From the NCBI GenBank assembly GCA_016218805.1, contig JACRCW010000017.1, positions 53 through 64,052 of the forward strand: a stretch of DNA of 64,000 nt. Direction: 5' to 3'. This stretch comes from Deltaproteobacteria bacterium (GTDB lineage Bacteria > Myxococcota > JACRCW01). Both the position numbers and the translations under genes were made by a program. Below the pieces are notes generated by a model, which saw nothing but the letters and a program-made list of their open reading frames with translations, searched no databases and was not told the DNA's origin. Positions 2,455 through 24,798 of the stretch are shown one piece after another; the first letter of the stretch is position 1, and each line of letters starts with the position of its first letter.

Positions 2455-2488
2455 GCGCTCCCTCCTCAGCGGACGTTGACCGCGACAA

Positions 2489-3082: not shown

Positions 3083-3480
3083 AGCCCAATGATCCCTCCC
3101 CACAGCTGCCCCGCCGGCAGGAAGCCGCCCTGATGGCGTTGCTGGAGAGCCCCACGCTGAACGCGGCCGCAGCGAAGGCCGGGTGCAGCAAAGCGACGCT
3201 GCGCCGCGGGTTGGCCGAGGAGGCGTTCCTGGCGGCCTACCGAGCGGCTCGGCGGGAACTGATGGGGCACACCGCGGCACGCCTCCAAGCAAGCGCTGCC
3301 GAGGCGCTGGACGCATTGCGGGCCATCATCGCGGACGCGGATGCGCCAGCCGCCGCACGCGTCACCGCAGCGCGCACCGTGCTGGAGATGGCGACACGCA
3401 CCGCGGAAACGGAAGAACTGAGTGAGCGCGTGGCAAAGCTTGAAGCTGCCGCGCTAGCGACGGAGGAAACATGGGCATGA
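3079..3480 (+). CDS. HTH protein, terminase-small-subunit-like (paralog 2)
   Basis: The motif TLNAAAAKAGCSKATLRRGLAEEAFLAAYRAARRE is a paralog of the upstream gene. The two overlap by ATGA. Confidence 0.5.
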   Translation: MKPNDPSPQLPRRQEAALMALLESPTLNAAAAKAGCSKATLRRGLAEEAFLAAYRAARRELMGHTAARLQASAAEALDALRAIIADADAPAAARVTAARTVLEMATRTAETEELSERVAKLEAAALATEETWA

Positions 3481-3689
3481 AACAGAGGGTAGAAGCGCTT
3501 GAGCGCCGCGCACCGAAACCACAGGCGCGGATCCACTACGTCGTCCGGAAGGCCGACGATGACGACACGTGCCCACATTGCGAGCGCGAACAAGCCACCG
3601 GGGTGCCGCCTGGCAAGGTTGTGCACCTCACGTGCATCCGTCGCCGGGCCAGCGAAGTGCCGGCACGGCCGCCCGACGAGCAAGGGTGA
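3471..3689 (+). CDS. Small protein with a CxxC motif (possible zinc-binding)
   Basis: The ORF is 72 aa with a coiled N-terminus and a CPHCE...LTC motif. Its start overlaps the end of the upstream gene. Confidence 0.35.
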   Translation: MGMKQRVEALERRAPKPQARIHYVVRKADDDDTCPHCEREQATGVPPGKVVHLTCIRRRASEVPARPPDEQG

Positions 3690-4147
3690 TCGCTGCCGTT
3701 CGCGGCGGACAACTCGCAGTCACGGCAGCGGCGCGCACCCTGGATCAGCGCTCGACCTCGCGCTGTGGGCATGCGGCATCCTCGGCCGCTTCCTTGGCCG
3801 CCTTGCGGGCTGCCTCTCCATTCTTTCCGGCTGCCTCCTCCGCCTTGCGGGTTTGCTTTCTGCTCAACCTGCGCCTCGCACACCTCTCGATCGCGCCCCG
3901 TGTTCTCCCGTGTCCGCCATGCACTGACATACGTCCCGGCAGAGGATCTCCGGTTCCGGTGCTGTGGACGCGGATGCAGCAAGTCAGGACCGGGGCAGGC
4001 GAGTCACCGCGGCCGAAGTAGACAAAAAGCACCATAGGGCTACAGTGAATGCTGGGCCGCCGGGGATGGCCGCTCAAGCTACGGCCTAGGTCGCTATCCC
4101 TCAAGTTCCGTCACCAGCCCCATGGGACGGATGCAACGAAGGGTACG

Positions 4148-4762
4148 ATGGCCACCGCTGCCGATGCTTCTGCGTTCCTCTTGGAGATTCAGCTCCAGCT
4201 GGACACGTACAAGCTTCACAAGTTGCTGTACTATGCACAAGGTTGGCACCTCGCGTGGTACGGCGAGCCCCTCTTCTCTGACAGGCTCGAGGCATGGGTG
4301 AACGGCCCGGTTGCGCCCGGCGTCTTCCATGAAACGCGCGGACTCCGCGAGGTGCGTGCGGTGCCGAGTGGAGACGGATACGCGCTTACTGAATGGCAAC
4401 AGCGCACCCTCCGCGAAGTGATGCGCGTGTACGGGGCTTTCTCTGGCGCGGACTTGGCCGAGCTCACCCATCAGGAGCCGCCGTGGAAAGCCGCCCGGGC
4501 AGGCCTTCCGCCTGATGCGAGATCAGACGCGGAAGTCGAACGTGCCGCCATGAAGCAGTTTTTTGCAGGCCTAGCCGCCATTGGAGAGGAAAAGGGGCGC
4601 ATTCCGCAAGGCGTAGTGGTTGGACTGCTGGCCTGGGCGAACATGAAGACCACCGAGCGAATGGACTTGGCACACCAAGACTTCGTCGACGCCGACGCGG
4701 ACGCCTATGCAAGGTGGATGAACGACGGCGGTGATGAGCCGTGGCCCGAACCGCGCGCCTGA
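4148..4762 (+). CDS. Panacea-domain (DUF4065, SocA/PanA-like) antitoxin-type protein
   Basis: The motif KLHKLLYYAQGWHLAWYGEPLFSDRLEAWVNGPV matches the Panacea-domain signature. The start was chosen at the internal Met. Confidence 0.7.
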   Translation: MATAADASAFLLEIQLQLDTYKLHKLLYYAQGWHLAWYGEPLFSDRLEAWVNGPVAPGVFHETRGLREVRAVPSGDGYALTEWQQRTLREVMRVYGAFSGADLAELTHQEPPWKAARAGLPPDARSDAEVERAAMKQFFAGLAAIGEEKGRIPQGVVVGLLAWANMKTTERMDLAHQDFVDADADAYARWMNDGGDEPWPEPRA

Positions 4763-5022
4763 GCAGGGCGTTCATCCGGCAATGCCACGACCTCAGGTGC
4801 CATGATCCCTCATGCGCTGTCGCCATTGCCCAGGTGGTGCGCGACCTCTGCGCATCCGAGCCTCTTCCCGGGGTGGGCGACACCCGTGCGTTGATGCCCC
4901 CGGTGGTGCACTGCCACGCACGTGCCCTCGAAACGCATTTTCGTTGGTTGCTCTACGAGTTCGATGACGAGCACGTTCACTTCCTTGGCATTAGCAGCAC
5001 CGACCCTTCGCCCAGGCAGTGA
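4741..5022 (+). CDS. ParE/RelE-fold toxin candidate, overlapping the Panacea gene
   Basis: A 22-nt overlap with the upstream gene is typical of toxin-antitoxin operons. The C-terminus RWLLYEFDDEHVHFLGI resembles the ParE/RelE (R.vYrVdde...V.iLrI.H) pattern, and codon bias is good. Confidence 0.4.
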   Translation: MARTARLSRAFIRQCHDLRCHDPSCAVAIAQVVRDLCASEPLPGVGDTRALMPPVVHCHARALETHFRWLLYEFDDEHVHFLGISSTDPSPRQ

Positions 5023-5549
5023 TTCCCTGGCTCCAAGCGGCTGGCGGATTCCCCGCCGCGCCCCGGGCGGGAAGCGCAGCCACGCCGCTGTTTCCTGCGC
5101 GTTGACGACGGCGGGCGTGCGCTTGTTTCCGCCGAGCGCGTGGACGCGGAGTTGGTGGACGATGTGGCGTCCCACGCAAGGTGAGACGTCGCCCGATGGG
5201 GACCCGCAGTCGCTGCCCGTCTATGCGCCGACAGTGACGGTGACCGCGTCGGGCGGCACCACTGCCTGAACGCCGCGCGCGTCTACGATTCGCACCCAGC
5301 CGAGGGCACCCCGTGCCAGCACTGCTATCTGGGCGCATCCGCGCGTGCGCGCCAGTTCCTCCAGGTGAAAATCTCCAGTGTGCGGATTGTTCCCGTCGGT
5401 CGGTCTGATGCGCCAAGCCAGGCACGGGTGAAGGCGTGCTCTTACCATCTGTCGTCGTCCTCTCTTGCGGGCGTTGCCGCAATCGGAATCCTACCTCGCC
5501 AGGCCTGAACAGCAAGAGGCGTCGATCAACTGGCCGCCCACGGTGCGCG

Positions 5550-6092
5550 CTACTTGACCACCTCCCGCTCGCGAGGCGTGGCGTTCTCTCCCTTGCGCTG
5601 GTCCTTCCACTTCTTGGCGCGTTCGCGTTCCACCTCCACCTCGCACACTTCCTGCTCCTGCCCGGTCTGGTCCATGCAAACCTTGACGTCATGATCGACC
5701 TGGGGTTCGTCGTCTTGGACCGGCGGCCGGTCGCTTCGGCGCTGGTAGTAGTCCGGGACCGGTGGTGCCTTCGGTGCGGTGAAGCGGGCGTCCAAACCGG
5801 TGTAGCCCAGCCGCACCAGCACGATGCCGATTCCGAGGACAGCGGCGCACGCCACGCACAAACCGACGAGCGCGGCGATGGGCAGGAGCCCCACGACCGC
5901 GCCGACGTAGGCTGTGGTGCCCACTGTTGGCGCCAAGGACACGGCAGCGGCAACCCCCACCAGCGCGCCGATGGCGGCGCCAGCCAAGCCTACCAGCCCT
6001 CCCGCGAGCCCGAATCCTCCCCACGTCGTGAACGCCGCGCCGAATGCCAGCTGCACCGCGGCCATTGCGACGTCGACTGATCCGGTCTCCAT
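5550..6092 (-). CDS. Glycine-zipper membrane protein with a charged C-terminal tail
   Basis: The N-terminus contains GGFGLAGGLVGLAGAAIGALVGVAAAV, a 2TM glycine-zipper motif. The C-terminus is acidic and basic. The start was chosen at an internal Met. Confidence 0.5.
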   Translation of the reverse strand: METGSVDVAMAAVQLAFGAAFTTWGGFGLAGGLVGLAGAAIGALVGVAAAVSLAPTVGTTAYVGAVVGLLPIAALVGLCVACAAVLGIGIVLVRLGYTGLDARFTAPKAPPVPDYYQRRSDRPPVQDDEPQVDHDVKVCMDQTGQEQEVCEVEVERERAKKWKDQRKGENATPREREVVK

Positions 6093-6415
6093 GCTGACCC
6101 CCGAGGTTGAACGCGGCCGGATGCTGCCGCGGTTCCGCGCTCCCGTCGACGTGCCGCACGTGCGACGCATGCTGACGCTGGCAAACGCTGCGCGCCGCGG
6201 CGGCAAACGTGTCGCGCCGTTCTCCGCCTCGGGGCTGAACGGCCATTCACCCGCTCGGGAAACGCGCTGCATGACGTATCCCATCCCCACGCATTGCCAG
6301 TCTGTCACGTCGTGCCCTGCCCCGGCTGTTACGGCGGGAACCCGCTGTAACGGATCTTGCCCGGGCGTGTCGCTTTGTGGTTGACGATGGGACGCAGCGT
6401 AATACACTGGGACGC

Positions 6416-7440: not shown

Positions 7441-8570
7441 CCCGCGCGCGGCGTGGGCGCGGCGAAGGCGGCGTCTACCAGCGCCCGGACGGACTTTGGT
7501 CTGCGCAGCTGTCGCTTGGGTACGACGGGAACGGCGGTCGCCTCCGCCGCACGCTCTACGGGCAGTCCAAGCGGGACGTGCAAGCGAAACTGCGCGCCCT
7601 TCAGACGGACGCTGACGTGGGAACGCTTGTCGCCCCGGAGCGGCTCACCGTTTCGCAGTTTCTGTCGCGGTGGCTGGACTCGGCCAAGCAGACGATCCGG
7701 GCGACAACCGCTGCGCGGTACCGCGCCCTCATCCGCGTCAGCGTGGGCCCGCACATCGGCGGCATTCCTGTGCAGAAGCTCCAGCCGCTGCAGGTCCAGG
7801 CGCTCTACGCCAAGCTGGAAGCTGCGGGGCTCGCGCCCTCAACACGTCGTCAGGTGCACGCCATTCTGCACCGTGCGTTTGCCCAGGCGGTCCGGTGGGG
7901 GAACATGGTCCGCAATCCCTGTGACGCCGTGGACAAGCCACGCGTGCCCAAGCACCGGGTTGACGCACTGAAGCCAGAGGAGGTGGCGAAGCTCGCGGAG
8001 GCTGCCAGCGGGGACCGCCTCGCGGCGCTGTACGTGCTCGCCCTCTCAACGGGGATGCGGCAGGGCGAACTGCTGGGCTTGCAGTGGTCGGACGTGGATC
8101 TCCCTGGGCGCGCCGTTGTCGTGCGGCACTCGCTGGAGGAAATCGCGGGCAAGCTGCGCCTGTCCGAAACCAAGTCCGGGAAGGTGCGTCGCGTTGACCT
8201 GGACGCGCACACCGTGGATGCGCTGCGGGAGCACCGGAAGCGCATGCTGGCGGAGGGTCACCCGGGGCCCTGGGTCTTCCCGGACACGGAGGGGAACCCG
8301 CTGCGCAAGTCCAACCTCGTCCGCCGGTCCTTCAAGCCGCTGCTGAAGCGCGCCGGGCTGCCGGACATCCGCTTCCACGACCTGCGCCACGCGGCTGCCA
8401 CGCTGATGCTCCTGCAGGGCGTCAACCCGAAGGTGGTCCAGGAGCGCCTTGGGCATGCGCAGCTAACCATCACGCTGGACGTCTATGGTCACGTCCTGCC
8501 CACCATGCAGGCCGACGCGGTGGCGAAGATGGACGCCTTTTGGCGGAGCGCGGCAGTTACTACTGCCTAA
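7437..8570 (+). CDS. Tyrosine integrase (phage integrase family)
   Basis: The protein has an N-terminal SAM-like domain and a C-terminal catalytic domain with R...HDLRHAAATLML...Y. It reads towards the tRNA fragment. Confidence 0.9.
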   Translation: MTRARRGRGEGGVYQRPDGLWSAQLSLGYDGNGGRLRRTLYGQSKRDVQAKLRALQTDADVGTLVAPERLTVSQFLSRWLDSAKQTIRATTAARYRALIRVSVGPHIGGIPVQKLQPLQVQALYAKLEAAGLAPSTRRQVHAILHRAFAQAVRWGNMVRNPCDAVDKPRVPKHRVDALKPEEVAKLAEAASGDRLAALYVLALSTGMRQGELLGLQWSDVDLPGRAVVVRHSLEEIAGKLRLSETKSGKVRRVDLDAHTVDALREHRKRMLAEGHPGPWVFPDTEGNPLRKSNLVRRSFKPLLKRAGLPDIRFHDLRHAAATLMLLQGVNPKVVQERLGHAQLTITLDVYGHVLPTMQADAVAKMDAFWRSAAVTTA

Positions 8571-8693
8571 CTACTGCCAATGGGGCGGAAAGTGGCGAAC
8601 CGCGGCGGTTGGTGGCGGATGCGTGGCCCGTCCGGTTGACGTCGTCAGCGAACGCGTGCGGCCGTCCGCGGCAGAAAGCGGAAACCCGCCCGT

Positions 8694-8740
8694 TCGGACT
8701 CATAATCCCTAGGTCGGCGGTTCGATTCCGCCCCCCGCTA
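8694..8740 (+). other. Partial tRNA 3' fragment (anticodon loop CTCATAA with CAT, T-arm GGCGG-TTCGATT-CCGCC, acceptor 3' strand). Candidate att core of the island.
   Basis: The T-arm is canonical, but no matching 5' acceptor or D-arm could be found, so this is not a complete tRNA. Integrating elements produce exactly this kind of partial 3' copy. Confidence 0.45.
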
Positions 8741-9085
8741 CACAGGAATCCATCGCATCCAGGTTCAATGCAGTCGCCGCGCCGGGGCCAGCCCGGGGCG
8801 GTGACCTTTCATCCGCACGCGGGTTGGGTTGCCCGCGGTTCTCACGGCGGGCGGAACCCAACGCCGCGCTTCATTCACCATGAAATCCCGGTGGCGGCTT
8901 CTCATGCCTTCTGCTAGTTTCACCCCATTCGCCGCGGGCTCGTGGGCAGACCGCTCCAGCGTGGCGACGGAAAGGGGACCGATCATGCGTGCCGCCGCCA
9001 TCACGTACGCCGTGACCGCCCCGTCCGTTCGCTCCTGAGCGTCGACGGAAACCTGCAAGGAAAGCCGTAGAGCGGGCGCCACAGA

Positions 9086-9520
9086 GTGGTGCCCCGCGGA
9101 GTGTTTCCAACAATGGGTTCCCACCAGAAACGGCCGGAGCGTCCGCTCCCGGCTGACGCCGTCCATGATGACGACGGCGTCGATCCCCGTGTGTATTTCT
9201 CGCGTGAATCACACCGCCGGAGTGTCCGGCGGGACGGGCAGGTGTGCGCCACTGCCTTTCGCGTGCTTTCCCTGGTGCTGGACGGTGAGGTCCAGGACCC
9301 CGTCCTGGGAGATTGCGCTGTTGACGAAGTCACGGTGGACGGCGGAGGAAAGCTGCGCGTGCGCATCCGGGTGCCAGATGCGGCCCGCGTGGCAGAGGCC
9401 CGGGAGCGGCTGCGTCGCCTGGAGGGGTGGCTGCGGTCCGCTGTGGCCGCGGCGCTGGTCCGCAAACGGGCCCCGGTGCTGGCGTTTGACGTGGTGCCCC
9501 AAAGCGGGGTGGCGCCATGA
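9086..9520 (+). CDS. Hypothetical protein upstream of and overlapping rtcB
   Basis: Codon bias is good from about 9240 onwards. The stop overlaps the rtcB start. No motif was recognised, and the protein does not look like archease. Confidence 0.4.
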   Translation: MVPRGVFPTMGSHQKRPERPLPADAVHDDDGVDPRVYFSRESHRRSVRRDGQVCATAFRVLSLVLDGEVQDPVLGDCAVDEVTVDGGGKLRVRIRVPDAARVAEARERLRRLEGWLRSAVAAALVRKRAPVLAFDVVPQSGVAP

Positions 9521-10638
9521 GCGCGGAGCAGCATGTCTGGGCATGCGCTCCCTTGCCGGACGACGTGCAGCGCGCGCTGGAACTCATCCGCAACACGGAG
9601 GGCGTGTGCCACGTGGCGGTCATGCCGGACGTCCACCGTGCCGAAGACGTCTGCGTGGGAACCGTGGTGGGCACCGCCGACGTGGTCATTCCCGCCGCCG
9701 TCGGAGCGGACATCGGTTGCGGGATGGCGGCGATCCGGTTTGACGTGGATGCCGGATGCATCCGCGACGAACGCACCGCCGCGCGCGTTCTTGCGTTGCT
9801 CAACGCGCGGGTCCCCGGTCTGCACCACGCATCACGCTCCCGCCCCGTCCTCCCGCCTGAGGTGCTGGCAGCGGAGCTGAGCCACGCGTCGCTCCGCAAG
9901 CAGGCGCAAAGAGACGGGGTGCTGGAGTTCGGCACGCTGGGGCGCGGCAACCACTTCCTGGAGTTGCAGGCTGACGACGATGGCCTGCTGTGGCTGATGG
10001 TGCACAGCGGATCCCGCGCCATGGGACCGGAGATCCTCCGTCACCATCTGGCGGCGAGCCGGATGACCACCACCGGGCTGCGCGTCATCAACGCCGGCGC
10101 AGCGGAACCTTATCTGCAGGACGTCCGGTGGGCGCTGGCGTACGCGCATCACAGCCGGGCGTACATGCTCCAGGTGGTCACGGACATCCTGGGTTCCCTC
10201 GTCGGGGCCGCGGCAGACCCGGCCACGCTGATCACCTGCGAGCACAACCATGTGCGACAAGAGGAGCACCGGGGCCGGTTGCTGTGGGTGCATCGCAAGG
10301 GCGCCATGTTCGCGGGAGCCGGGGTGGCTGGCGTCATCCCCGGCTCCATGGGGTCCTCAAGCTTCCACGTCCAGGGACGCGGGTGTGAGGACGCGTTGTG
10401 CTCAAGCTCCCACGGCGCGGGCCGGGCCATGAGCCGCAGCCAGGCACGGCGGGCCGTCACCCTCCGCGCGCTGGAGGACCAGCTGCGGGGCGTGCACTTT
10501 GACCACCGTCTGGCCCTGCGCCTGCGGGATGAAGCGCCCGCCGCCTACAAGGACATCTCCGCCGTCATGCGCGCGCAACGCGAGTTGGTGCGCGTGGTCC
10601 GGAGGCTGCGACCGCTGCTCAGCTACAAGGCCGCCTAG
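9517..10638 (+). CDS. rtcB: RNA 3'-phosphate/5'-OH ligase RtcB
   Basis: The RtcB metal-binding blocks HVAVMPDVH, GNHF, CEHNH and HGAGR are all present. Confidence 0.85.
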   Translation: MSAEQHVWACAPLPDDVQRALELIRNTEGVCHVAVMPDVHRAEDVCVGTVVGTADVVIPAAVGADIGCGMAAIRFDVDAGCIRDERTAARVLALLNARVPGLHHASRSRPVLPPEVLAAELSHASLRKQAQRDGVLEFGTLGRGNHFLELQADDDGLLWLMVHSGSRAMGPEILRHHLAASRMTTTGLRVINAGAAEPYLQDVRWALAYAHHSRAYMLQVVTDILGSLVGAAADPATLITCEHNHVRQEEHRGRLLWVHRKGAMFAGAGVAGVIPGSMGSSSFHVQGRGCEDALCSSSHGAGRAMSRSQARRAVTLRALEDQLRGVHFDHRLALRLRDEAPAAYKDISAVMRAQRELVRVVRRLRPLLSYKAA

Positions 10639-10687: not shown

Positions 10688-10827
10688 GTCCGGATAGGGG
10701 GGACGGGCCTTCCGGATAGGGGGGAAGGCCATTCCGGATAGGGTTTGGGCCTTCCGGATAGGGGGGGAAGTGCTTCCGGATAGGGGGGGGACACGTTCCG
10801 GATAGGGGGGCCGCACCCTCCGGATGC
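10688..10827. repeat. Tandem direct-repeat array: 6-7 copies of TCCGGATAGGGGGG(G) at about 21-bp spacing
   Basis: The copies begin at 10689, 10711, 10732, 10752, 10774 and 10795, with a partial copy at 10820. The array lies between convergent gene ends (rtcB and the HEAT-like gene). Confidence 0.85.
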
Positions 10828-10885: not shown

Positions 10886-12331
10886 TCACGGTCCCGCTTG
10901 CTGGGGCCAACTGCTGCGCGCGTCGGACCACCAGGCGCGCCACAACCGGGCCACGTCCCGGCGCTCGGCGCGGGTGGCTTTGGCGTCAAACACCATGGGC
11001 TGACCGGTCAACTGGTGCAGGTCACGCACCGCGGTGCGAGCCAAGTTGCCGTCCGTGCCATCCAGCGCGGCAATGAGCCAGTCAATCCGGGTGAGCGCGC
11101 CGGAGCGTGCGTACCAGCGCTGCCAGGCCCGCGCCGCCCGTCCGGCATCCTGGCAAGTGATCTTGGTCAAGGCGTCATGCGCCTCATCCCCCAGCGGGCC
11201 GGACAGCAGGCCAATGAGCGGTTTCACCCACGCGGCCTCGTGGATCAGTGCCGCGGCGCGCACGGCGGCAAGCTGCAACCGCTCATCGCCTGACGCGGCA
11301 CCTTGGGCCAGCGCGGCAATCACGCTGCGCGCGGCGGCCGCCTGTTCAGGCCCGCGCGCGGTCATCTGCCCCAACATGTTCGCGGCCGCGTAGGCAATGC
11401 GCGGCTCGTCGTCGGCAAGGAACTGCGCGCACAGGACGGCCACGGCAGGCAGACGGGTCTGGTCAGCCATCAGCACCGCCACGAACCTGGCGGAGCGGTC
11501 CGCGTGCCCCACCCCCGCGGCCACCGCCAGCACGGCGGCGTCTTCGCCCAGGCGGCCCAGCGCGTGGGCCACGGCGCTCAACTCCGCCACGGTCCGGCGC
11601 GGGGCGTCATCCACAAACACATCCCGCAGCAACCGGCCCGGGAAGCGGCGCAACAGTTCGGCGGCGGCGCAGCCGCGGTGCGCCAGCAACCGGCTGGCCA
11701 GCGCTTCCGGGTCCGCGTTCCCCGCGGCAAGGCGTTCCACCAGCGGACCCAGTTCCGGGTCCACCGGCGTGGCCACCAGGCGGGCGACGCACGCGCGCAA
11801 TTCGTCCGCGTCCAGGTGCGGAGCCTGCTCCAGCAGCGCGTCCAACTCGGCCGGCGCAGTGCGCGGCCCTGCGGGCACCGCGTCAGGCTGGTCCCATGCG
11901 GGCGGTGGCGGCGGTGGTGGTGGCGGCGGTGGTGGTGACAGCGGTGGTGGTGACAGCGGTGGCGGTGACGGCGGCGGCGGCGGCGGTGATGGCGGCGGTG
12001 GCGGCGGCGTGGCGGGGGACCGGGGAGGCGGCCCGAGTGCTGCGGGAGGCGGGCCGTCCAGCATGGCGCGTACCTGCTGCGTGAACTCCGCCGGCGCGTT
12101 GGAGATGAGGACCATGGCCACGCCTTCCCGGACGGACAGGACCTTGCCCTGCACCTCCGCCTGGGGAGCTTCCGCAGACAACGCAAACCGCAGCTTGAGA
12201 AACCCCCGGGCGGCCGGCGACCCGCGCACGGGGATGGGCCCGGCGTCGATTCTGCTCATGAACGCAGCCAGCGCCTCGCGGTTGGGAAACCGCACGACAC
12301 CCTGCTCATCCATCTGCGGGAGGTCATCCAT
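10886..12331 (-). CDS. Proline-rich linker protein with a C-terminal HEAT/ARM-like alpha-helical repeat domain
   Basis: A long poly-Pro tract (PPPPPPSPPPPPPSPPPLSPPP...) is followed by helical repeats. The start was chosen at MDDLPQM; the longer ORF reaches 12487. Confidence 0.55.
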   Translation of the reverse strand: MDDLPQMDEQGVVRFPNREALAAFMSRIDAGPIPVRGSPAARGFLKLRFALSAEAPQAEVQGKVLSVREGVAMVLISNAPAEFTQQVRAMLDGPPPAALGPPPRSPATPPPPPPSPPPPPPSPPPLSPPPLSPPPPPPPPPPPPAWDQPDAVPAGPRTAPAELDALLEQAPHLDADELRACVARLVATPVDPELGPLVERLAAGNADPEALASRLLAHRGCAAAELLRRFPGRLLRDVFVDDAPRRTVAELSAVAHALGRLGEDAAVLAVAAGVGHADRSARFVAVLMADQTRLPAVAVLCAQFLADDEPRIAYAAANMLGQMTARGPEQAAAARSVIAALAQGAASGDERLQLAAVRAAALIHEAAWVKPLIGLLSGPLGDEAHDALTKITCQDAGRAARAWQRWYARSGALTRIDWLIAALDGTDGNLARTAVRDLHQLTGQPMVFDAKATRAERRDVARLWRAWWSDARSSWPQQAGP

Positions 12332-12625
12332 GGTTTCCGCCGTCGGTGTTTCTGCACACAGTACGTTGGGGCGCGGAATCCTGCCTGCCCTCCGGCGTTT
12401 CAGCAACGGGGCGCGTGGGTCCACGTCGTCCGGTGCGGGAAGGCGGCCGCGCCACCTTCTGTGCGAGCTGATACGCGCGGCCTGCACAGGCCATCCGTCC
12501 GTGAAGACGTCAAATCGCTGCGGGCATGGCTACAAAGTGGTTGAGACCCATTCGGCCGAGGCTCCGGGCGCCACGGCCGCCTGCACGGTCCAGCGGGTCG
12601 CAGCCATGGGCGGGGAGGTGCGCAC

Positions 12626-16534: not shown

Positions 16535-16992
16535 GCGTCGGCACCACGCGTCAGGGCGCGCCATCCACGCGGATGGCAGCTGTCACCTCGGAGTCCGGTG
16601 GCGCCCCCGCCGGGGCCAGCGTAGTCAATCCACCCGCGGAACATGACGGTGGGGCGCTCCGCCATCAGCGGCGCGGTACCGTCATCCTCGATTTCAACGT
16701 GGACGCTCGTCCGGCACTCCTGTCCGAGGGCGCACCCCTCAAAGATGTTCCAACGGTGTTCCATGATGACGTGCCCCGACGACATTTCGCAGCCGACAGC
16801 GTTCTGCGAACACGCAAACGTGCGCAGCCCGCCGTCAACCGCGACGGCCTGCAATGGCACCACCTGTCCGCCGACCTGGCCCAGCCCCACAGCCGTGACT
16901 GTTCCAGAGAACGAGCAGCGACCTGTTTCTGGCCACAGCAGTTCGATGATGAGTCCAACTTCGATGCGCTCGGCAACGCCGGTCGTATGCAT
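16531..16992 (-). CDS. Hypothetical protein (locally lower GC). It may be the frameshifted body of a small lipoprotein whose MKKLRL signal lies in another frame at about 17089.
   Basis: The ORF has moderate codon bias. An adjacent out-of-frame ORF encodes MKKLRLWLGV... (a signal-like sequence). Confidence 0.25.
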   Translation of the reverse strand: MHTTGVAERIEVGLIIELLWPETGRCSFSGTVTAVGLGQVGGQVVPLQAVAVDGGLRTFACSQNAVGCEMSSGHVIMEHRWNIFEGCALGQECRTSVHVEIEDDGTAPLMAERPTVMFRGWIDYAGPGGGATGLRGDSCHPRGWRALTRGADA

Positions 16993-17085
16993 TCGTCAGC
17001 CCGCAGGCGAATCCCGCTCCAACGGAAACACTCAGCCAATGCTCACCACCAGGCATTGGGACGCCCAGCCACAACCTGAGTTTCT

Positions 17086-17862
17086 TCATGGCGGTCCGCC
17101 GTCCGCACCTTCGCACCTGTAGACGTTGGACTGGCCCTGGACGGTGAGTCCGGCGTCCGTCACTTGAGGGTACACCGAATACGGCAAACGGTTCGGAACC
17201 CGGGTGCGTGACGCTGCTGCTTCCTCCTTGGCCTTCTCCAACCTAAGAGCCCAACGGCGGCAACAACGGTCCCCGAGCAAGTCCACTTGCAAGTCCCTCC
17301 CCGCTGCCGACCCACCTTCCATGTATGCCCATGCGTTGGGCCAGATCACCTGGAAATCGGCGAGATACTTCCCGGTGTCGTCTACGACCAACAAGCCTCC
17401 GTTCGCCGACGCGTTTCCCATGACGGACTGGAACGCGACGGGGAGCCCCACGGAAACTCCACACACAGGGTCGCTCGCACGAGCCTCGAAGCGCAGGGCG
17501 AATACCACACGGGGTTGCTCCCCCCTGGTGAACTCCATGATCGACGCCCAAGTTTGGGCGGGCGCAATGAGGATCTTGGATGCCAGGGCACCCATCCATA
17601 GGTCCTCCGGCTGCACTTCCAACATCTCTCCAGTGCCATTCCAATACGGCATTCCATCTTCGCGCCACGACGCTGGACAACTCTCGGCTTCAGGGCACGC
17701 ACCCACAAAGGCCAGACGACCAACGCCCACCGCGTTGGCCCGATCAAGATCCTCAGCGTCATGAAACACGGTTGAGTCCGGAGGCCGTATCGTCTCCGTG
17801 CAACTCAGCGCGGCGCAGAGGCACGCGGCTACCACGGGTTGTCGGCGGAGAATCCAACGCAT
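17086..17862 (-). CDS. Hypothetical secreted/lipoprotein
   Basis: The signal and lipobox MRWILRRQPVVAACLCAALSC are present. The start was chosen downstream of the repeat array, which the longer ORF reads through. Confidence 0.5.
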   Translation of the reverse strand: MRWILRRQPVVAACLCAALSCTETIRPPDSTVFHDAEDLDRANAVGVGRLAFVGACPEAESCPASWREDGMPYWNGTGEMLEVQPEDLWMGALASKILIAPAQTWASIMEFTRGEQPRVVFALRFEARASDPVCGVSVGLPVAFQSVMGNASANGGLLVVDDTGKYLADFQVIWPNAWAYMEGGSAAGRDLQVDLLGDRCCRRWALRLEKAKEEAAASRTRVPNRLPYSVYPQVTDAGLTVQGQSNVYRCEGADGGPP

Positions 17863-17974
17863 TTGAAACGCCCTCCCGCCCTTTCTGCGGCGAGCATGAT
17901 GACGAGGAATTGCCTCTGTCAACAGCCTGCGGTGCAAGTAGGAGCCGTTTGAACCCGTCGAACGCCACCCCATC

Positions 17975-18192
17975 AGGCGTCCAGCGGTACCGGAGCAGGC
18001 GTCCGATTGTACCGAAGCAGGCGTCCACCGCTGCCGGAGCGGGCGTCCGGCGGTACCCAAGCAGGCGTCCAGCGGTACCCGAGCAGGCGTCCAGCGAACC
18101 CGAGCAGGCGTCCAGCGGAACCCGAGCAGGCGTCCAGCAGTGCCGGACCGGGCGTACGCTGTTGCCCGAGCAGGCGTCCACCTCCGGAGCCA
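17975..18192. repeat. Tandem array of about 10 copies of a 21-22-bp unit, CAGGCGTCCAGCGGTACCCGAG
   Basis: Copies start at about 17975, 17997, 18018, 18040, 18062, 18084, 18105, 18127, 18149 and 18171. The array sits in a divergent intergenic region. Confidence 0.85.
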
Positions 18193-18301
18193 CGCTCCAA
18201 CCGCCCCGGGTTTGCGGCTCCCCGCGGTGGCCCCACCCAATGAACGCCCGTGACCAAATCCTGTTCCCCTCAGCGGCCTCCTGGACCAGGGCCGCTATCA
18301 C

Positions 18302-18946
18302 GTGACGCTGACGACTGAGAAGGCCGACCAGCTTGCGAAGTTTGGGTTCACGCCGGACCACCGTGCGCGCATGGAGGAGATCCTGAAGAAGATCGGCACC
18401 GACCGCGCGGAGGCGACTGACAAGCGTGCCCGGTCACAAAGCAACACCAAGACGGAGCGCGAAGCCCTGTCCGATGTGAAGGCCCTGAAGCGAAAGCTCC
18501 TCAGCGCCGCCGACGACCTCGCGACCGACGCAGTGATGAACGAGGACGACCGCAAGGCGCTCAATGCGGGCCGCAAGCTTGCGCGGTCCACCACGCTGCA
18601 CTCCGCGTATCTCACCAAGGTCCGCGGCGTGGTGGAGCGCCATTCCGCCGCGCTCAAGCCGCTCATGGGCGGCGAGCGGGATCCCCTGACGTGGCTGGAT
18701 GATGTGAAGAAGGCGCTTGATTCGGCCCAGAGCACGCAGGAGTTGTCGGTGGCCTCGCTGCCCACGGAGACCGCCGAGGTCTACGAGAGCAAGGGCGAGT
18801 TGCTCACGCTCATTGAGAAGGCGAACCGTGCTGGGTGTCGCGCGTATGACGGCGATGCGCGCACCATTGGGTTGTTCAACAAGGACCTCATCCTCCGCGC
18901 GGTGGCCAACCGCGCGGTAGCGGCCCCCAAGCCCCTCCCTGCCTGA
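18302..18946 (+). CDS. Hypothetical protein
   Basis: The ORF has good codon bias and is predicted to be helical. No motif was recognised. Confidence 0.5.
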   Translation: MTLTTEKADQLAKFGFTPDHRARMEEILKKIGTDRAEATDKRARSQSNTKTEREALSDVKALKRKLLSAADDLATDAVMNEDDRKALNAGRKLARSTTLHSAYLTKVRGVVERHSAALKPLMGGERDPLTWLDDVKKALDSAQSTQELSVASLPTETAEVYESKGELLTLIEKANRAGCRAYDGDARTIGLFNKDLILRAVANRAVAAPKPLPA

Positions 18947-19449
18947 GCCGACGGAAGGTCACCCTTTGACTCGAGTTTCGCCGTTTTTCAGGCTGGGCGG
19001 GCGTTCCGGGCCGGCTTGCGGCAGTCCGCAGGGACAGATTTGCTCATGTTTGTGGGGCCGGGGTCTCTGCCGGCCGCCGACCCATGGCTGCACAGCGCAA
19101 CAGCCCGCCACCAACCGGGGTGGTTTCCCGCGGTATTGAGTGCCCAGGCGCTGTACCGCAGTTGAGGGTGGTGTGGGGTCGGGGCGCCGCGCTGGCATGC
19201 GCCTGCGGCCGGCAGGGATGCCGGCCCCACAAACACCTGACTGGGCACCGGGCATGAGTGCTGGGCTCAGACTCGGGTCTTACCGGCGTGATGTTCATCT
19301 CTGTCGTCGTTGACGTTGGTTGGGAGTGGGCTGCTATGGACGGTTGGGTGCCCCGTGTGGCGCGGCTCAGAAACTCCGCAACACCGCGAGGAACCGCGCC
19401 AAAGCCCCTCCCAAAACGGCGAAACGCGAGTTTGACGCCGGCGCTGCGC

Positions 19450-22400
19450 TCAGGTGCCGCCGTCCGCCGGGCAGGTGCCACCGTCCGCGCGCTGGCAGAA
19501 GCGCGCCCGCACCTGGAGGGTCTCCACGGCCACCGCCCCGCCGTCCGCGTCCACCGCCCGCACCTGCACGGCCACCGCGGGAGCGCCGCCCGGCAGGCGG
19601 ACCGTGTGCCGTGCGGGTTGGGGCACCGTGCCAGACGCCAGCGGCTGCCAACTGCCCGCGGCGGGTCCCACGGACTGCCACGCGTGGAGGCTGCCGGCAG
19701 GCACCCCCGCGTCCGAGGACTGGTCAACGTCCACCGCGACTTCGCGCAGGTGGGCGGTGGACAGGTGGGCCTCCGACAGGGGGGCCCCCAACGTCAGGCT
19801 CCCCGCCGGGTGGCGGGGGCTTTCCAGGATCCACGTGCCTTCCGAGTTGCCGCTGGGACCTGACGCGGACAGCGCCAACACGCCGCCGGCCACGGGGTCA
19901 TAGGCCGCGCCTACCACGCCCTCCAGCGCCAGGGGCCGCGGCGCCAGCGGCAGGGCGCGGAAGTGCAACGCGGCGCCGTCCCAGGTGACCTCCAGGGACG
20001 GCACCGCCGTTCCGCCGCGCGGGTCCATCGCGGACGTGCTGTCACCGCCCACCACCACCAGCGCCTGCCGCACCGGGTCATACGCCAGGGTGTGATTGGC
20101 ACGCGCCGGCGGGGCGTCCACCACGGGAGTGGCGTTCACCCAGCGGTGCGTGCCCGGGTCCAACAGCCACGCGTCCGCCAGCGGGCCGGTGTCGCCCAGG
20201 CCGCCGTACAGCACCACGGCGCGGGCCTCCGCAAAGTACGCCATGGCGGCGGCGCGTCGCGGTGGCGGCCGTGTGGGCGAATCACCCGACACGTCACTCC
20301 ACAGCGCCAGCGCAGCGTTGCGGTTGAAAGTGAGCGTGGTGTCCAGGAGTGTGCCGCTGCCGTTGGCGCCGCCAAACAGGAAGGTGGTGGACGGAAAGCC
20401 GGTGGCGTCCACCAGGGCCAGCGCACCGTCCGCGCGTCCCGGGTTGGGCCCCAGCAGGCAGGCGCCCGCCACATTCAGCCCGTTGGCGTCCAGCGTGGCG
20501 TACCCGCACAGCATCAACGTGCTGGTGGGTCCCACCAGCACGGCTTCCACGCTGTCAGTCTCCGGCGGCACGGCCCCCATGGTCAGGCCCAACGGGTAGT
20601 TGTTGAGCAGGTTCAACATGGAGGACGACGTGGTCCACGCGCCGGCGCTGCCGCGCCAGAGCTGCACGGCGCCGCTGGAGTCCTGCACCACGGCAACGGG
20701 CGCGGACCTCCCCATGACCATCAACACGCGGCCGCCTGCGGGCGCGCGCAGCGGCGCGGGGGTCACCTCCGCCCAGCCGGGTGCCTCGCTCCAGGCCCAC
20801 AGGGTGCGGCGCGTGCAGGTTTCACCCGGGAGGGCCTCACAGCCGGCCAGCAGCAGCCGCCCCACCAGTGCGCCGTCCGCGCGCCAGCCGCGGTGCGGGT
20901 CCAGGAACCCGGCCGCCGCGGGCTGTGGTCCCGGCGTCACGGACGTGGCCACGGTGGACCAGGTGCCCGCCCGCAGCCGGGAGAGCGTGTCCGCCGTGGC
21001 GCTGCCGCCGTAGAGCAGCAGGTCCCCGTTGGACGGGTCCACCACCATCAGGTGCCCGCTGCGGGCCGGGGCCGCGCCCGCCGTCCCCACCGCCGCGAAA
21101 CTGACGCCGTCAAAACGCCACAGGTCGGCCAGCGGCGTGCCGGCCGCGGAGGTCCCGCCGTGGACCAGCACCGTGCCGGTGGCCGGCTCCCAGGCGCCGG
21201 CCGCCCCACGCCGCGCGGACAGGGTGGCCCCCGGCACGGCGCGCCACGCGTACCCGTTCCACTCCCACGTGCTGGTGCTGAAGGTGGCCGGCGGTTGGGC
21301 GCAATCCCGCACGCCGCCCACCAGCACCACGGCGCCCCGGCCGGGGTCCGCCACCAGGGTCGCCTGGGCGCGGCCTTCGGGCGCGGCTTCCAGGGCAAAG
21401 GCCGCACCGTCCCAGCGCCACACGTACGGCAGCGCGTCATTCCCCCCGCCGCAGCCGCCATAGAACATCACGCCACCACCCACCGGGTCGTACGCGGCCG
21501 CCACGCCGCGCAGGCCGACGGGGAGGTCACCGCGCAGCTCGGGGAAGCGCCAGCTGGAACCGTCATACTCCGCCACCTGGGCGCTGCTGCCCGCCCACGC
21601 CAGCAGCACCAGCCGGTCACGTGCGGGGTCATACGCGCCGGCCATGTCCGCGGACGCCAGCGGTGTCCCGTCCGGCACTTCCACCACACGCCACTGCGTG
21701 CCACCGGACATCACCAGCGCCCCGTCCGCCGCGCCCGCCAGCCGCGGGTGCCCCGCCCCGGGCGTCACGCCCCAGGACCCGCCCGTGTCCACGGGCAGCG
21801 GGTGCGGCGGCCAGGCCCCGCTCTGCCAGACCACCGGCGCGGCACCCCGCGTCGGGACCACGGTCTCCACGTCCAGCTCGGTGTGCTGCAGGGGCACCGG
21901 CGTGGACTCGTTGCCGGCCTCATCCACGGCGGTGACCAGCACGCCGCGCCCTTCCATGCCGGTCCACACGGGGCTGCTGGACTGCCAGGCCCCCGCCCGG
22001 TCCTCCCACCCCACCTGCGACAGCAACCGCGGGGCGGAACCCAGCGGGCCCGCGTCGGCTTCGGCGGTCACCGGCCAGTCCCAGAAGCGCAGCAGGCGCA
22101 CGTGCGCCCCCGCCGGGAACCCAAAGTCCTGCGGCCCCAGGTCCACCCGGGCGGCGCCCAGCCCGGTGCTGCCCACCACGCTGAACACCGCGCTGCCGGT
22201 GACCTCGCTGTAGCGCTCCCCGGGGACCGTCACCGGCCCTCCACCCGGCTCCGGACCGCCGCCGCCTGTGGGGCCCAGGCCGCCCGTGGTGGTGCCGGCG
22301 TCCGCGTCAGCGGGCAGCCCGGGCAGGGTGACCGCGCTGACTGGCGTGTAGTGCTTGGCGGTGGGCTGCCGCAGCAGCGCCACGTTGTGCTGCCGCACCT

Positions 22401-24798
22401 GCAGCTGCGGCGCGCGGGCGCGGACGTGCAGCACCGGGGCGGCCAGGCCACCGTCACGGTCATTGGGGTTGCCCGCCAGGTCGGTCAGCTCCGGGTACAG
22501 CGCGTAGTCCCCGGTGGGCGCACTCCCGGCGACGGCGCGGAACATCACCAGGTAGGTGCTTTCGCCCGCCGACGGGTCCGCCACAAAACGGATGGCGCCG
22601 CCGTCCCTGCCGCGTGCCACCAGGGCGGGCCCCGCGTCCCCGGCGGCAAACACCGGCTCATTGGCCACCAGCACCGCCAGCACCTCCGTGTCCGGCCGTG
22701 CCGCCGTCACGTCCTGCACGGGGTTGTCCGGCGCGGGCAGGTACAGCAGTTCCGCCACGGGCAGCGTGGGTGCCGCCAGGTCATACGGGACGGTGGCCAC
22801 CGCCGTGGTGCGGTTTCCGGCGGGGTCGCGCAGGGTGACCTCCAGGGACACAAAGCCCTGCGGCAGGTCAGCCCGGATGCCGGTGCTGCAGGACCAGTCC
22901 GCACCGGTGGCCGTGCAGGTCATGGCGTCACCTTCAAAGCGCGCCTCCGCCACGTTGGCCGCGTCCAGGTTGCCACCCGGGGCGTCCAACGCCTGGAAGG
23001 TGGCGGTGAGCTGACCGCCGGCCCGTTCCGCCGGGCCAATCCGCGCCGGGGCCACCTGCAGCCCGCTGATGGCCGGGGCCTGCCCGTCCACCACAAAGTC
23101 CGGCAGCTGGGTCAGCGCCGTGACGTTTCCCGCGCGGTCCGCGAACAGCATGGTATCCGCCGCCAGCGTCCACACGCCGTCCAGCGCGCCCTCCGGCACC
23201 TCAAACGTCCACTGCCCAAAGCTGCCTGACACCGACGCCACCACGGGGTGCCGCACGCCCGCGGGGTCCAACAACTGCGGCTGCACCGCGGCGAACTCAA
23301 CCGGTTCGTCCGCGTAGGCGGACAGGAACACCGTCATGCCGGGCCGCACCAGCGCCGGCTGCAGGTCCGGCACCACGCCCGGCGCCCGCTTGTCCACGAC
23401 GATGTTGCGGAACGGGACGAACTCGCCGGTGCGGCCCGACTCGTCCATGAGGTCCACCCGCACGGGTGCTTCGCCATCCGGAATGTCCGCGGTCACCGTC
23501 ACCTCACCGGTGCAGTCCGTGCGGGTGGCGTCCGTGCACGTGGGTCCTCCGTCCGGGGAGAACGGCGTGTCCCGCAGGCGCATGGCGGGGGGCGCGGCCA
23601 GAGGTTTGTTGGCGGTGACGCGCAGGCGCAGCGTGACGCCGGCGTTCACCAGGTGGCTCCCGCCGTCCGCGGTGATGCCCAGCGTGCCGCCGTCAGCCAG
23701 CACGCGGCCCAGGCTGGCGGTCTCCAACTGCACCGCGTCCGGGTCCCGCCGCACCGTGCCCACGTCCACGGACACGCGGTTGTCCGCCAGGTCCGCAAAG
23801 GCCACGCGCGCCGTGTAGGTGGTTCCCAGCGCCAGGGTCCCGGCCGCCGCCCGCGAGCGGAACAGGAAGGTGGACGTGGCCAGCCCCACCGGCCCTTCCA
23901 CGAGGTCAAACGCCCACGCCGGGTCCTCCACCAGGGTCACGGACGCGGTGGGCAGCGCGCGCTCGTCCACGGTGAACTCCACCGTGACAAACGCGGTGTC
24001 CGCCGCCAGTGACGGGGTCACGTGCGCTTCCGGTGACCCGTCCGGTTCCAGGGCCAGCGCGGGCGGCTGCAGGTCCAGCACCACGTCGGTGGACACGGTG
24101 CGGGACGCGTAGCCTTCGTCATCCACAAACCGGGCGAACACCCGCCGCCGGCAGACGTTGGGGGCCGCACACGGGGTGGACAGGCCCACGTCCAGGTTCC
24201 ATGGGATGGCTTGGTCCGCCGTGCCGCTCAGTTCCACCCGCCGCGTGCGGGGCACCGCCGCGTCCCCGTCATCCGGGAAGGTGGACACGTTGCTGAGGCG
24301 GACGTACCGGCCCACCGGTTGCCTGACGAGCAGGGTGACATCCGCGGAGCCCACCACCCCTTCGGACGACACCACGCCAATGGCCCCGTCGTCGGGATCG
24401 GGTGACGGGCGCAGGCGGACGCGCACGTCCACCGGCTCGTCGCGGACGCCGGGTTTGAGGGAAAACGGCGCCGAAATCCCGTAGTAGACGACAGGTGCGG
24501 AGAAGTCCTCGGCTCCACGGAACTCCACGCTGACCACCAGGCCATCACCGTTGTCCACGTTCTTGAAGTCCAGCTGCATGCCGGGGCCGTAGCGCACCGG
24601 CCCCACCGTGCGGACGTCGCTGTCGCGCGTGACGCGGCCCACAATCCACAGCACCTCGTCGGGGGAAGGGCGTTGGGACTCCCAGGTGAAGTGCACCCGG
24701 AACGTGCCCCCGCGCGACGTGCCCGGCCACTGCCAGCCGGAGCACGCCACCAGGGCGGACGCGGCGCACATCAGGACGACGCGTGTCTTCATGGCCAC
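19450..24798 (-). CDS. Giant (1782 aa) secreted lipoprotein with beta-propeller (Kelch/galactose-oxidase-like) and Ig-like repeat regions
   Basis: There is a lipoprotein signal (LVACSG), repeated Gly/Trp-rich blade-like segments, and a start 4 bp after the stop of the upstream PEGA gene. Confidence 0.75.
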   Translation of the reverse strand: MAMKTRVVLMCAASALVACSGWQWPGTSRGGTFRVHFTWESQRPSPDEVLWIVGRVTRDSDVRTVGPVRYGPGMQLDFKNVDNGDGLVVSVEFRGAEDFSAPVVYYGISAPFSLKPGVRDEPVDVRVRLRPSPDPDDGAIGVVSSEGVVGSADVTLLVRQPVGRYVRLSNVSTFPDDGDAAVPRTRRVELSGTADQAIPWNLDVGLSTPCAAPNVCRRRVFARFVDDEGYASRTVSTDVVLDLQPPALALEPDGSPEAHVTPSLAADTAFVTVEFTVDERALPTASVTLVEDPAWAFDLVEGPVGLATSTFLFRSRAAAGTLALGTTYTARVAFADLADNRVSVDVGTVRRDPDAVQLETASLGRVLADGGTLGITADGGSHLVNAGVTLRLRVTANKPLAAPPAMRLRDTPFSPDGGPTCTDATRTDCTGEVTVTADIPDGEAPVRVDLMDESGRTGEFVPFRNIVVDKRAPGVVPDLQPALVRPGMTVFLSAYADEPVEFAAVQPQLLDPAGVRHPVVASVSGSFGQWTFEVPEGALDGVWTLAADTMLFADRAGNVTALTQLPDFVVDGQAPAISGLQVAPARIGPAERAGGQLTATFQALDAPGGNLDAANVAEARFEGDAMTCTATGADWSCSTGIRADLPQGFVSLEVTLRDPAGNRTTAVATVPYDLAAPTLPVAELLYLPAPDNPVQDVTAARPDTEVLAVLVANEPVFAAGDAGPALVARGRDGGAIRFVADPSAGESTYLVMFRAVAGSAPTGDYALYPELTDLAGNPNDRDGGLAAPVLHVRARAPQLQVRQHNVALLRQPTAKHYTPVSAVTLPGLPADADAGTTTGGLGPTGGGGPEPGGGPVTVPGERYSEVTGSAVFSVVGSTGLGAARVDLGPQDFGFPAGAHVRLLRFWDWPVTAEADAGPLGSAPRLLSQVGWEDRAGAWQSSSPVWTGMEGRGVLVTAVDEAGNESTPVPLQHTELDVETVVPTRGAAPVVWQSGAWPPHPLPVDTGGSWGVTPGAGHPRLAGAADGALVMSGGTQWRVVEVPDGTPLASADMAGAYDPARDRLVLLAWAGSSAQVAEYDGSSWRFPELRGDLPVGLRGVAAAYDPVGGGVMFYGGCGGGNDALPYVWRWDGAAFALEAAPEGRAQATLVADPGRGAVVLVGGVRDCAQPPATFSTSTWEWNGYAWRAVPGATLSARRGAAGAWEPATGTVLVHGGTSAAGTPLADLWRFDGVSFAAVGTAGAAPARSGHLMVVDPSNGDLLLYGGSATADTLSRLRAGTWSTVATSVTPGPQPAAAGFLDPHRGWRADGALVGRLLLAGCEALPGETCTRRTLWAWSEAPGWAEVTPAPLRAPAGGRVLMVMGRSAPVAVVQDSSGAVQLWRGSAGAWTTSSSMLNLLNNYPLGLTMGAVPPETDSVEAVLVGPTSTLMLCGYATLDANGLNVAGACLLGPNPGRADGALALVDATGFPSTTFLFGGANGSGTLLDTTLTFNRNAALALWSDVSGDSPTRPPPRRAAAMAYFAEARAVVLYGGLGDTGPLADAWLLDPGTHRWVNATPVVDAPPARANHTLAYDPVRQALVVVGGDSTSAMDPRGGTAVPSLEVTWDGAALHFRALPLAPRPLALEGVVGAAYDPVAGGVLALSASGPSGNSEGTWILESPRHPAGSLTLGAPLSEAHLSTAHLREVAVDVDQSSDAGVPAGSLHAWQSVGPAAGSWQPLASGTVPQPARHTVRLPGGAPAVAVQVRAVDADGGAVAVETLQVRARFCQRADGGTCPADGGT

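Follow-up and report, generated by a model that had tools for sequence, protein, structure and literature searches.

What role does a ten-copy tandem repeat play in the intergenic DNA of a Deltaproteobacteria bacterium (Myxococcota; JACRCW01)? The window, by which we mean the whole 64,000-nt stretch analysed here (assembly GCA_016218805.1, contig JACRCW010000017.1, positions 53 to 64,052), possesses a tandem array of ten head-to-tail units, nine of 22 bp and one of 21 bp, at 17973..18192 (+, relative to the gene downstream), followed by a gene at 18302..18946 (+) that is annotated, in a metagenome-assembled genome, as a hypothetical protein of 214 amino acids (MBI5493766.1, HY904_02000). An earlier note, made from the sequence alone, had proposed the array as a candidate set of helically phased regulator sites, or a phase-variable spacer, in a divergent promoter region. 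Assessing the relatives of the downstream gene, we found something absent from that note, namely that the array is a family-wide hallmark cis element of the gene, and that array and gene together apparently form an undescribed two-part module. We tentatively read the array as a set of binding sites on DNA, and weigh that reading below against its alternatives.

Linkage of the array to a gene family

Flanking DNA of the homologues was taken from NCBI, JGI, ENA and Logan assemblies, and a locus was counted as array-positive where Tandem Repeats Finder (TRF) called an array with a period of 20-23 and 2.7 or more copies no further than 600 nt upstream of the gene. Of 26 dereplicated family loci (relatives 30-84% identical, cited by identifiers such as L050), 20 possess such an array, compared to a background of 5 such arrays in 238 kb of other sequence (binomial P 1.9e-33). 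Three of the six array-negative loci (L068, L062, L080) show degenerate periodicity at 22, 42 or 65 nt, and the periodicity of L064 is weak (lag 69); L069 and L070 were counted as negative because their array abuts the remaining half of the gene, outside the 600-nt zone. The linkage persists to ~31% protein identity (L065, L067, L068, L072).

Across these loci the sequence of the unit differs from one to the next and the period stays at 21 or 22. Examples include L050 (ACCCAGTCGAAGCTGGTGGAGC, 2.7 copies), L053 (CGCCCCGGTCGCGGCGGTTCCT, 11.9 copies), L056 (CAAGTCGTGCCGGAGCACCTCG, 11.7 copies), L059 (CCAGAGTCGTGACGAGGGGCTT, 15.1 copies), L075 (TGCGCCGCGACCACCACCAGGA, 16.4 copies), L082 (CACGCGACGATCGCTCACTCGC, 10.4 copies) and L084 (TGGATTCCACTCGACCACCCCC, 11.1 copies). 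Family arrays comprise 3-16 units and tolerate +/-1 bp within an array, and most possess a conserved block of 8-16 bp with a variable remainder (chi-square p down to 1e-8). Many also show higher-order periods of 43/44, 65/66 or 88 bp, which point to recent block duplications. From the end of the array to the start codon there are 48-200 nt, apart from L060, whose spacer measures 509 nt because an element of ~345 bp was inserted between array and gene (224-567; MITE-like, that is, resembling a miniature inverted-repeat transposable element, with nested terminal inverted repeats of 36-46 nt that are 74-89% complementary).

Array, spacer and gene also travel together. Between L053 and L079 the DNA is 69% identical over 1 kb; the aligned stretch opens at the first repeat unit and runs almost to where the gene ends, with unrelated surroundings on either side, and a homology that starts exactly at the first unit indicates that the three parts were inherited as one module. 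Upstream neighbours differ in each locus, and no second gene is conserved near the family gene. The literature on such arrays, or on new type III toxin-antitoxin families, yielded nothing relevant except the type III criteria discussed below, and we found no described family or system that contains the array-gene module. Four members (L053, L075, L077, L082) come from large contigs of a single JGI metagenome (3300048578), each with a different unit, and would, if they belong to one genome, be paralogous modules with mutually distinct arrays.

The protein family itself is unannotated. Homologues of the 18302-18946 product are ~240 amino acids long, fall into 53 clusters at 90% identity, are represented by 317 sequences at the 50% level, and share an N-terminal KG..VP..GLLDQA and a C-terminal FNKDLILRA motif. 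Sequence searches of Pfam, NCBIfam, PHROGs and PADLOC, and a profile search of PDB sequences, returned nothing. AlphaFold2, run on a 51-sequence alignment, gave a confident all-helical model (predicted local distance difference test 91, predicted template modelling score 0.71), for which Foldseek found nothing at E <= 0.001 among PDB and viral models, its matches being those of a generic helical bundle only. The family is mildly basic (median isoelectric point 8.65); its C-terminal tail is basic, and basic residues are among those conserved. A HEPN assignment was considered and rejected, as the R-x4-H motif (RSTAKH) occurs in the closest homologues only and not family-wide (consensus RSTxxI). 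The loci are chromosomal, on contigs of up to 382 kb, and no homologue was found in 72,556 PLSDB plasmids, 50,697 INPHARED phages or IMG/VR.

Genomic context provides a suggestive association of the family with defence islands. Flanks of several kb were available for ~19 loci. In seven of these, recognised defence genes directly adjoin the family gene, and in an eighth (L067) an IrrE/HTH pair does; about 40% of the long loci lie beside BREX, Shango, type I/III restriction-modification, Csx1 or Mrr genes. The defence-type neighbours of the seven are Mrr_cat (L050); BrxA, BrxB and BrxC, directly downstream and co-oriented (L056); Csx1/Csm6 (L071; PADLOC E 1.5e-50); immediately upstream, a restriction enzyme and a methyltransferase of type III (L077); HsdM and Uma2 upstream with Shango SngA/SngB directly downstream (L079); hsdM/hsdS/Phd-ParE on one side and Uma2/Schlafen-like/hsdR on the other (L082); and a C5 methylase with UvrD-like helicases (L084). 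Housekeeping genes, e.g., PFOR, ClpB and SBF, neighbour the remaining loci.

The array and the gene copy in the window

Within the window the array is the top-scoring tandem repeat that TRF called (17967-18180, period 22, 9.8 copies, 77% matches, 2% indels, score 223). Dissection anchored on GGCGT gives ten units, the first at 17973, at successive spacings of 22, 22, 22, 22, 22, 21, 22, 22 and 22 bp and with the consensus GCAGGCGTCCAGCGGTACCCGA; the anchored array agrees to within 2 nt with the earlier note, which had given ten copies of CAGGCGTCCAGCGGTACCCGAG at 17975-18192. Each unit consists of a conserved core, (A)GCAGGCGTCC, and a linker of ~11 bp that varies by point changes, with the final unit (18170-18191) retaining the core alone. 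Over the ten units, positions 4-10 (GGCGTCC) hold 1 mismatch and positions 11-17 and 20-21 hold 28; the scan statistic for core conservation gives P 0.0003 for ten units and 0.004 with the last unit excluded, such that the clustering of mismatches outside a core of 7-11 bp makes uniform decay unlikely. The 16-mer AGCAGGCGTCCAGCGG, at up to 3 mismatches, matches 11 times in the window vs 2.96 +/- 1.61 times in shuffles, and 0 of 100 shuffles attain 11; eight of these 11 matches fall inside the array, and the window has no second cluster. An Rfam 15 scan of the whole window, run at the gathering threshold, matched nothing, and the only other copy of the locus is 100% identical. CRISPR arrays have identical repeats of 23-50 bp with unrelated spacers of similar length between them. 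That class was ruled out here, where the total period is 22 bp and the linkers are point variants of each other.

One could regard such an array as a variable-number tandem repeat without function, a neutral product of slippage that hitch-hikes with the gene. Tandem repeats do arise through slippage, and with the window's gene copy apparently damaged, as described below, its array may be under no selection now. Neutrality would not, however, account for mismatches that cluster outside a core, nor for arrays of equal period that persist upstream of members diverged to ~30% identity despite complete turnover of their sequence, and we consider this explanation quite improbable.

We next considered translation, given that three frames present long ORFs across the array, namely 17580-18305 (+), 17086-18240 (-) and 17759-18361 (-), and that the automatic gene caller of Logan picked the first of these, which runs through the array on the plus strand. 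Long spurious ORFs are expected because the DNA is ~70% GC (70.3% over the window). A 22-bp period with one 21-bp unit wrecks any peptide repeat, there is no coding-type pattern of GC content at third codon positions (GC3) through the array, the ORFs crossing it have neither homologues nor a Pfam match, and at other loci the frames across arrays are open or closed with no pattern. The earlier note's view that the array is unlikely to be coding is thereby borne out; we regard the window array as non-coding and its translation as very unlikely, and give a coding repeat in any of the three frames almost no credence. Intergenic arrays in high-GC genomes thus deserve neither dismissal as slippage noise nor absorption by over-extended ORF calls.

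The array takes up 220 of the 439 nt that separate the ORF at 17086..17862 (-) from the family gene. That upstream ORF, called a lipoprotein gene in the earlier note, has a moderate coding signal by GC phase and lies outside the module; it is an ORFan with 0 homologues in 5.8 billion proteins, is not called as a gene, has no exact protein record and no Pfam or PADLOC match, and its lipobox (ALSC) is non-canonical by eye. Nor did the notion of a divergent promoter region hold up, as the array accompanies the downstream gene only, and upstream neighbours, which differ per locus, are often co-oriented.

The downstream ORF is a real gene by its frame signal (GC3 0.82-0.90), and its copy in the window is, judging from the sequence, probably 5'-truncated or decaying. 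The spacer from array to annotated start (18193..18301, +), the shortest among the loci, contains an in-frame TGA at 18251-18253, after which, still ahead of the annotated GTG at 18302, the gene frame holds codons for PNPVPLSGLLDQGRYH; these correspond to the family's conserved N-terminal motif (VPLxGLLDQ), which the window copy reads as VPLSGLLDQ upstream of its annotated start. DNA alignment with L050 and L051 shows ~70 nt to be gone, including the ribosome-binding site (RBS), the start codon and the first ~13 codons, and the window protein falls ~27 conserved N-terminal residues short of its ~240-amino-acid family. Scans of this spacer found no sigma-70-like or sigma-54-like promoter match and no terminator, and the copy is probably without its promoter. 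Since the module looks damaged here, apparently lacking promoter, RBS and ~27 codons, the array may be a relic at this locus. An alternative ancestral start at ATG 18240, reading "MNARDQIL" in another frame, was rejected: the DNA alignment points to the ~70-nt deletion instead, and the likeness is probably spurious. L069 (925-1264) and L070 (2249-2588) provide a second case of deletion between array and 5' part of the gene, with a truncated family gene (residues ~144-231 only) that has a 22-bp array of 2.7 copies 18 nt upstream.

Several further features of the window were noted. The module lies in an island of lower GC content (16600-19400; 62-68% vs 70-78% in the flanks, by composition profile). 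Besides the array and the family gene, this island takes in ~500 nt of non-coding DNA and a pair of small ORFs on the minus strand, and it was possibly acquired horizontally. Downstream of the module, and convergent with it, 19450-24798 (-) encodes a 1782-amino-acid Kelch/Big_13 protein whose segments are 27-33% identical to a 1210-amino-acid protein just upstream of the L053 array (1987-5619), a likeness that may be coincidental within a large myxobacterial family. A second array of ~22-bp period (10689-10825; about 6-7 units, core TTCCGGATAGGGGGG plus variable linker) is built like the family arrays but stands as an orphan. It lies between the 3' ends of convergent genes, a 373-amino-acid ORF that is RtcB-like by eye (9517-10638, +) and a 533-amino-acid proline-rich ORF (10886-12487, -), and tblastn found no family gene or remnant near it.

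Arrays built on the GCAGGCGTCC core also occur outside the family. Scanning 185,579 species genomes with an exact pattern of two cores 22 bp apart returned unrelated single matches and a few unrelated arrays only, and recovered neither this genome nor a relative. Intergenic arrays with this core and a period of 21-24 bp were seen in L006 (3994-4121), L007 (1514-1655), L018 (3863-3960), L030 (5776-5922), L032 (6911-7004), L035 (1243-1358) and L044 (2440-2618), from Actinomycetota, Streptomyces, Bacteroidaceae and Planctomycetaceae; several begin right after a stop codon, and none is near a family homologue. They may be chance finds, since the search itself was selective for the core, or may hint at a broader class of arrays with a period of ~22 bp.

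Candidate roles of the array

Our preferred reading, tentatively held, is that the array lies just ahead of the gene's promoter and presents, in helical phase, DNA sites to a sequence-specific binder, which is probably the product of the adjacent gene. The module would then comprise a 21-22-bp tandem array, a 50-200-nt spacer with promoter and RBS, and a solitary gene for a ~240-amino-acid all-helical protein, and would be passed on whole within the variable and defence regions of Myxococcota-like chromosomes. Each unit would offer one core of 8-11 bp, recurring every two helical turns, such that 3-16 copies of the binder could line up on the same helical face immediately ahead of the promoter, and the bound array would set expression of the gene as an operator or upstream control array. 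We infer action on DNA and a promoter between array and gene from the pattern of results given here, and most cautiously of all the identity of the binder, for which the adjacent gene's product would be the most economical candidate because it is the sole thing conserved beside the arrays.

Several null results favour duplex DNA as the acting form. RNA folding scored arrays no better than controls with units permuted alike (window z +1.9 and +1.0 for the two strands; only L072 and L055 deviate), and no consistent strand asymmetry in composition was seen among 21 arrays. Terminator hairpins between array and gene were likewise not apparent, with 17 spacers scoring no better than shuffles (mean z -0.33) and no T run following. 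Together with the strict two-turn period, the lack of terminator, RNA structure and strand asymmetry argues for action on the duplex. As to the promoter, most of the weak sigma-70-like matches fall in the stretch from array to ATG, promoter prediction being weak in these high-GC taxa. A sigma-54 scan of 20 spacers found no -24/-12 element beyond chance, with scores no better than shuffles and 9 of 20 spacers without GG-N10-GC. Among the earlier note's suggestions, then, the phased array of regulator sites still offers the best reading, given the core/linker pattern and the 21-22-bp period over 20+ diverged arrays, and the suggestion of enhancer-binding proteins is not supported, with no sigma-54 promoter found.

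Some observations weigh against binding sites for the adjacent protein. Promoters are represented by weak consensus matches only, with none in the window, and dyad symmetry of the cores is not enriched over shuffles, for which we dropped it as a sign of a dimeric DNA binder. Unit similarity follows protein divergence weakly (Spearman 0.16, p 0.05): the L053 and L082 proteins are 74% identical, yet their units are largely different and share only CTCGCCnCG, and the L053 and L079 proteins are 51% identical, yet 18 of 22 unit positions are shared. Comparing pairs that do and do not share a unit, no segment of the protein co-varies with the unit. The array of L071 sits downstream of its family gene rather than upstream, and some arrays of 21-22-bp period have no family gene beside them (window 10689-10825, L006, L007, L030). 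DNA homology between L053 and L082 spans the coding sequence and ~30 nt only. The L071 array (5961-6261; 14 copies of 21 bp) lies 290 nt downstream of a distant family member, with a Csx1/Csm6 CARF-HEPN gene convergent on its far side. At the end of that locus (8536-8892), further repeats, of 70/110-bp period, could be a CRISPR array.

The poor coupling of unit to protein would suit an array with no dedicated binder, i.e., a contingency or structural element. It might be a spacer whose copy number varies, a zone behind the upstream gene that insulates or terminates, or a set of sites for a general nucleoid protein. Arrays do occupy the gap immediately after upstream genes, orphan-type arrays lie between convergent genes in the window (10689-10825) and in L071 (5961-6261), the 44/66/88-bp higher-order periods represent recent block duplications, and many contigs end within arrays. 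A sequence-independent role, however, leaves unexplained both the conserved core with its variable linker and why arrays should accompany one protein family (P ~1e-33); the only duplicate loci are identical. We rate such an element as rather unlikely.

Alternatively, the array might act as RNA, being transcribed and perhaps cut into units of 21-22 nt whose binding would neutralise or regulate the product of the adjacent gene, in a type-III-like or abortive-infection module with a new helical toxin. The outline resembles type III loci, where a solitary protein gene is directly preceded by a tandem array in the same orientation, and where truncated genes with arrays and downstream arrays are also reported (Blower 2012, PMC3401426). 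Among the family, full arrays are likewise kept by 5'-truncated genes (the window; L069/L070) and an array is found downstream in L071, the repeat sequence diverges fast among homologues, one metagenome (3300048578) holds several members with distinct units (L053, L075, L077, L082), and defence-island neighbours recur (BrxA/B/C, SngA/B, type I/III restriction-modification, Phd/ParE, Csx1, Mrr). Type III criteria further include a palindromic terminator between repeats and toxin gene, a promoter upstream of the array, a ToxN/CptN/TenpN-type endoribonuclease toxin, and repeat RNA that inhibits the toxin and is processed by it (PMC3401426). No palindromic terminator separates array and gene here, though, and arrays fold no better than permuted controls and lack strand asymmetry. 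In four loci (L053, L075, L077, L079) the array begins 16-25 nt past the stop codon of a co-oriented upstream gene, which would seem to leave too little space there for a promoter of its own. Family units measure 21-22 nt in up to 16 copies vs 34-46 nt in 2-6 copies for known type III families, and the protein is unrelated to ToxN, CptN and TenpN and matched no PADLOC model. On balance an RNA role appears unlikely, but it is the chief competitor of the DNA reading and, like an array with no dedicated binder, a serious alternative.

Cutting across DNA and RNA roles, array and helical protein may constitute a new single-protein defence or addiction module, in which the array would be the cognate nucleic-acid partner (antidote RNA, infection sensor or self-operator) of a new-fold protein, analogous but unrelated to type III toxin-antitoxin; we consider this possible but doubtful. 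If the array is the partner of the protein, one of two new things would follow: a fold that binds DNA or RNA and whose recognition is programmable and locus-specific, or a minimal module for defence or addiction. Its relevance lies in an unannotated family of at least ~300 clusters with a confident, unmatched fold, nearly always accompanied by a two-turn array of 3-16 copies and recurrent beside BREX, Shango, restriction-modification and CRISPR-associated genes.

Relation to known array-containing systems

Type III toxin-antitoxin systems, iteron replicons and partition loci were all first recognised through such a constant association between a protein and a repeat, and each offers a comparison. 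With type III toxin-antitoxin (ToxIN, CptIN, TenpIN, AbiQ) the family shares an upstream co-oriented array, a single gene, fast divergence of the repeat and a defence context. Upstream repeats are found at 20 of 26 loci plus 3 degenerate ones; a terminator and a ToxN/CptN/TenpN-type toxin are not. The family module differs in its all-helical protein of ~240 amino acids; it also has no hairpin of terminator type, no apparent promoter ahead of the array and no RNA structure by prediction.

Iterons are comparable in repeat geometry, as all family arrays (period 21-22) consist of direct repeats in helical phase within the 17-22 bp of the iteron criterion. Like the iterons bound by R6K pi, pPS10 RepA and RK2 TrfA, they are asymmetric, locus-specific direct repeats of ~22 bp with a core and a spacer, placed beside the gene of the presumed binder. 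One might accordingly read the array as a plasmid- or phage-type iteron origin, or as a partition centromere, with a cognate Rep or centromere-binding protein; 3-16 direct repeats of 22-bp period beside a gene recall R6K, pPS10 and RK2 iterons as well as parC, sopC and tubC arrays. The absence of homologues from the plasmid, phage and IMG/VR sets largely removes both readings, however, and the module, being chromosomal, has no Rep_3 or other winged-helix Rep fold, replication genes, identified DnaA boxes or unwinding element. Nor do the Pfam lists of its neighbours include ParA, ParM or TubZ, no neighbour of any kind being conserved. We hold an iteron or centromere to be highly improbable.

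Partition and operator arrays (R1 parC-ParR, the 20-bp repeats of pSK41 ParR, pSM19035 omega heptads, the 43-bp repeats of F sopC) form extended, autoregulating nucleoprotein arrays. They resemble the family arrays in having phased direct repeats upstream of the binder's gene that overlap the control region, and differ in that the family gene is solitary and chromosomal, without a partner NTPase and without a ribbon-helix-helix or helix-turn-helix fold.

Finally, some regulators in defence islands have upstream operators of their own (BrxR/CapW WYL proteins, restriction-modification controller (C) proteins), and BrxR-type regulators sit directly upstream of a defence operon. The family genes of L056 and L079 are placed likewise, being directly upstream of, and co-oriented with, the BREX (brxA-B-C) and Shango (sngA-B) operons, respectively. 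Most family genes, in contrast, are monocistronic with a convergent gene downstream, and their products have no winged helix-turn-helix/WYL or helix-turn-helix domain. The operators would differ as well: BrxR/CapW and C proteins use one or two inverted repeats, whereas the operator of the family would be a direct-repeat array of 3-16 units.
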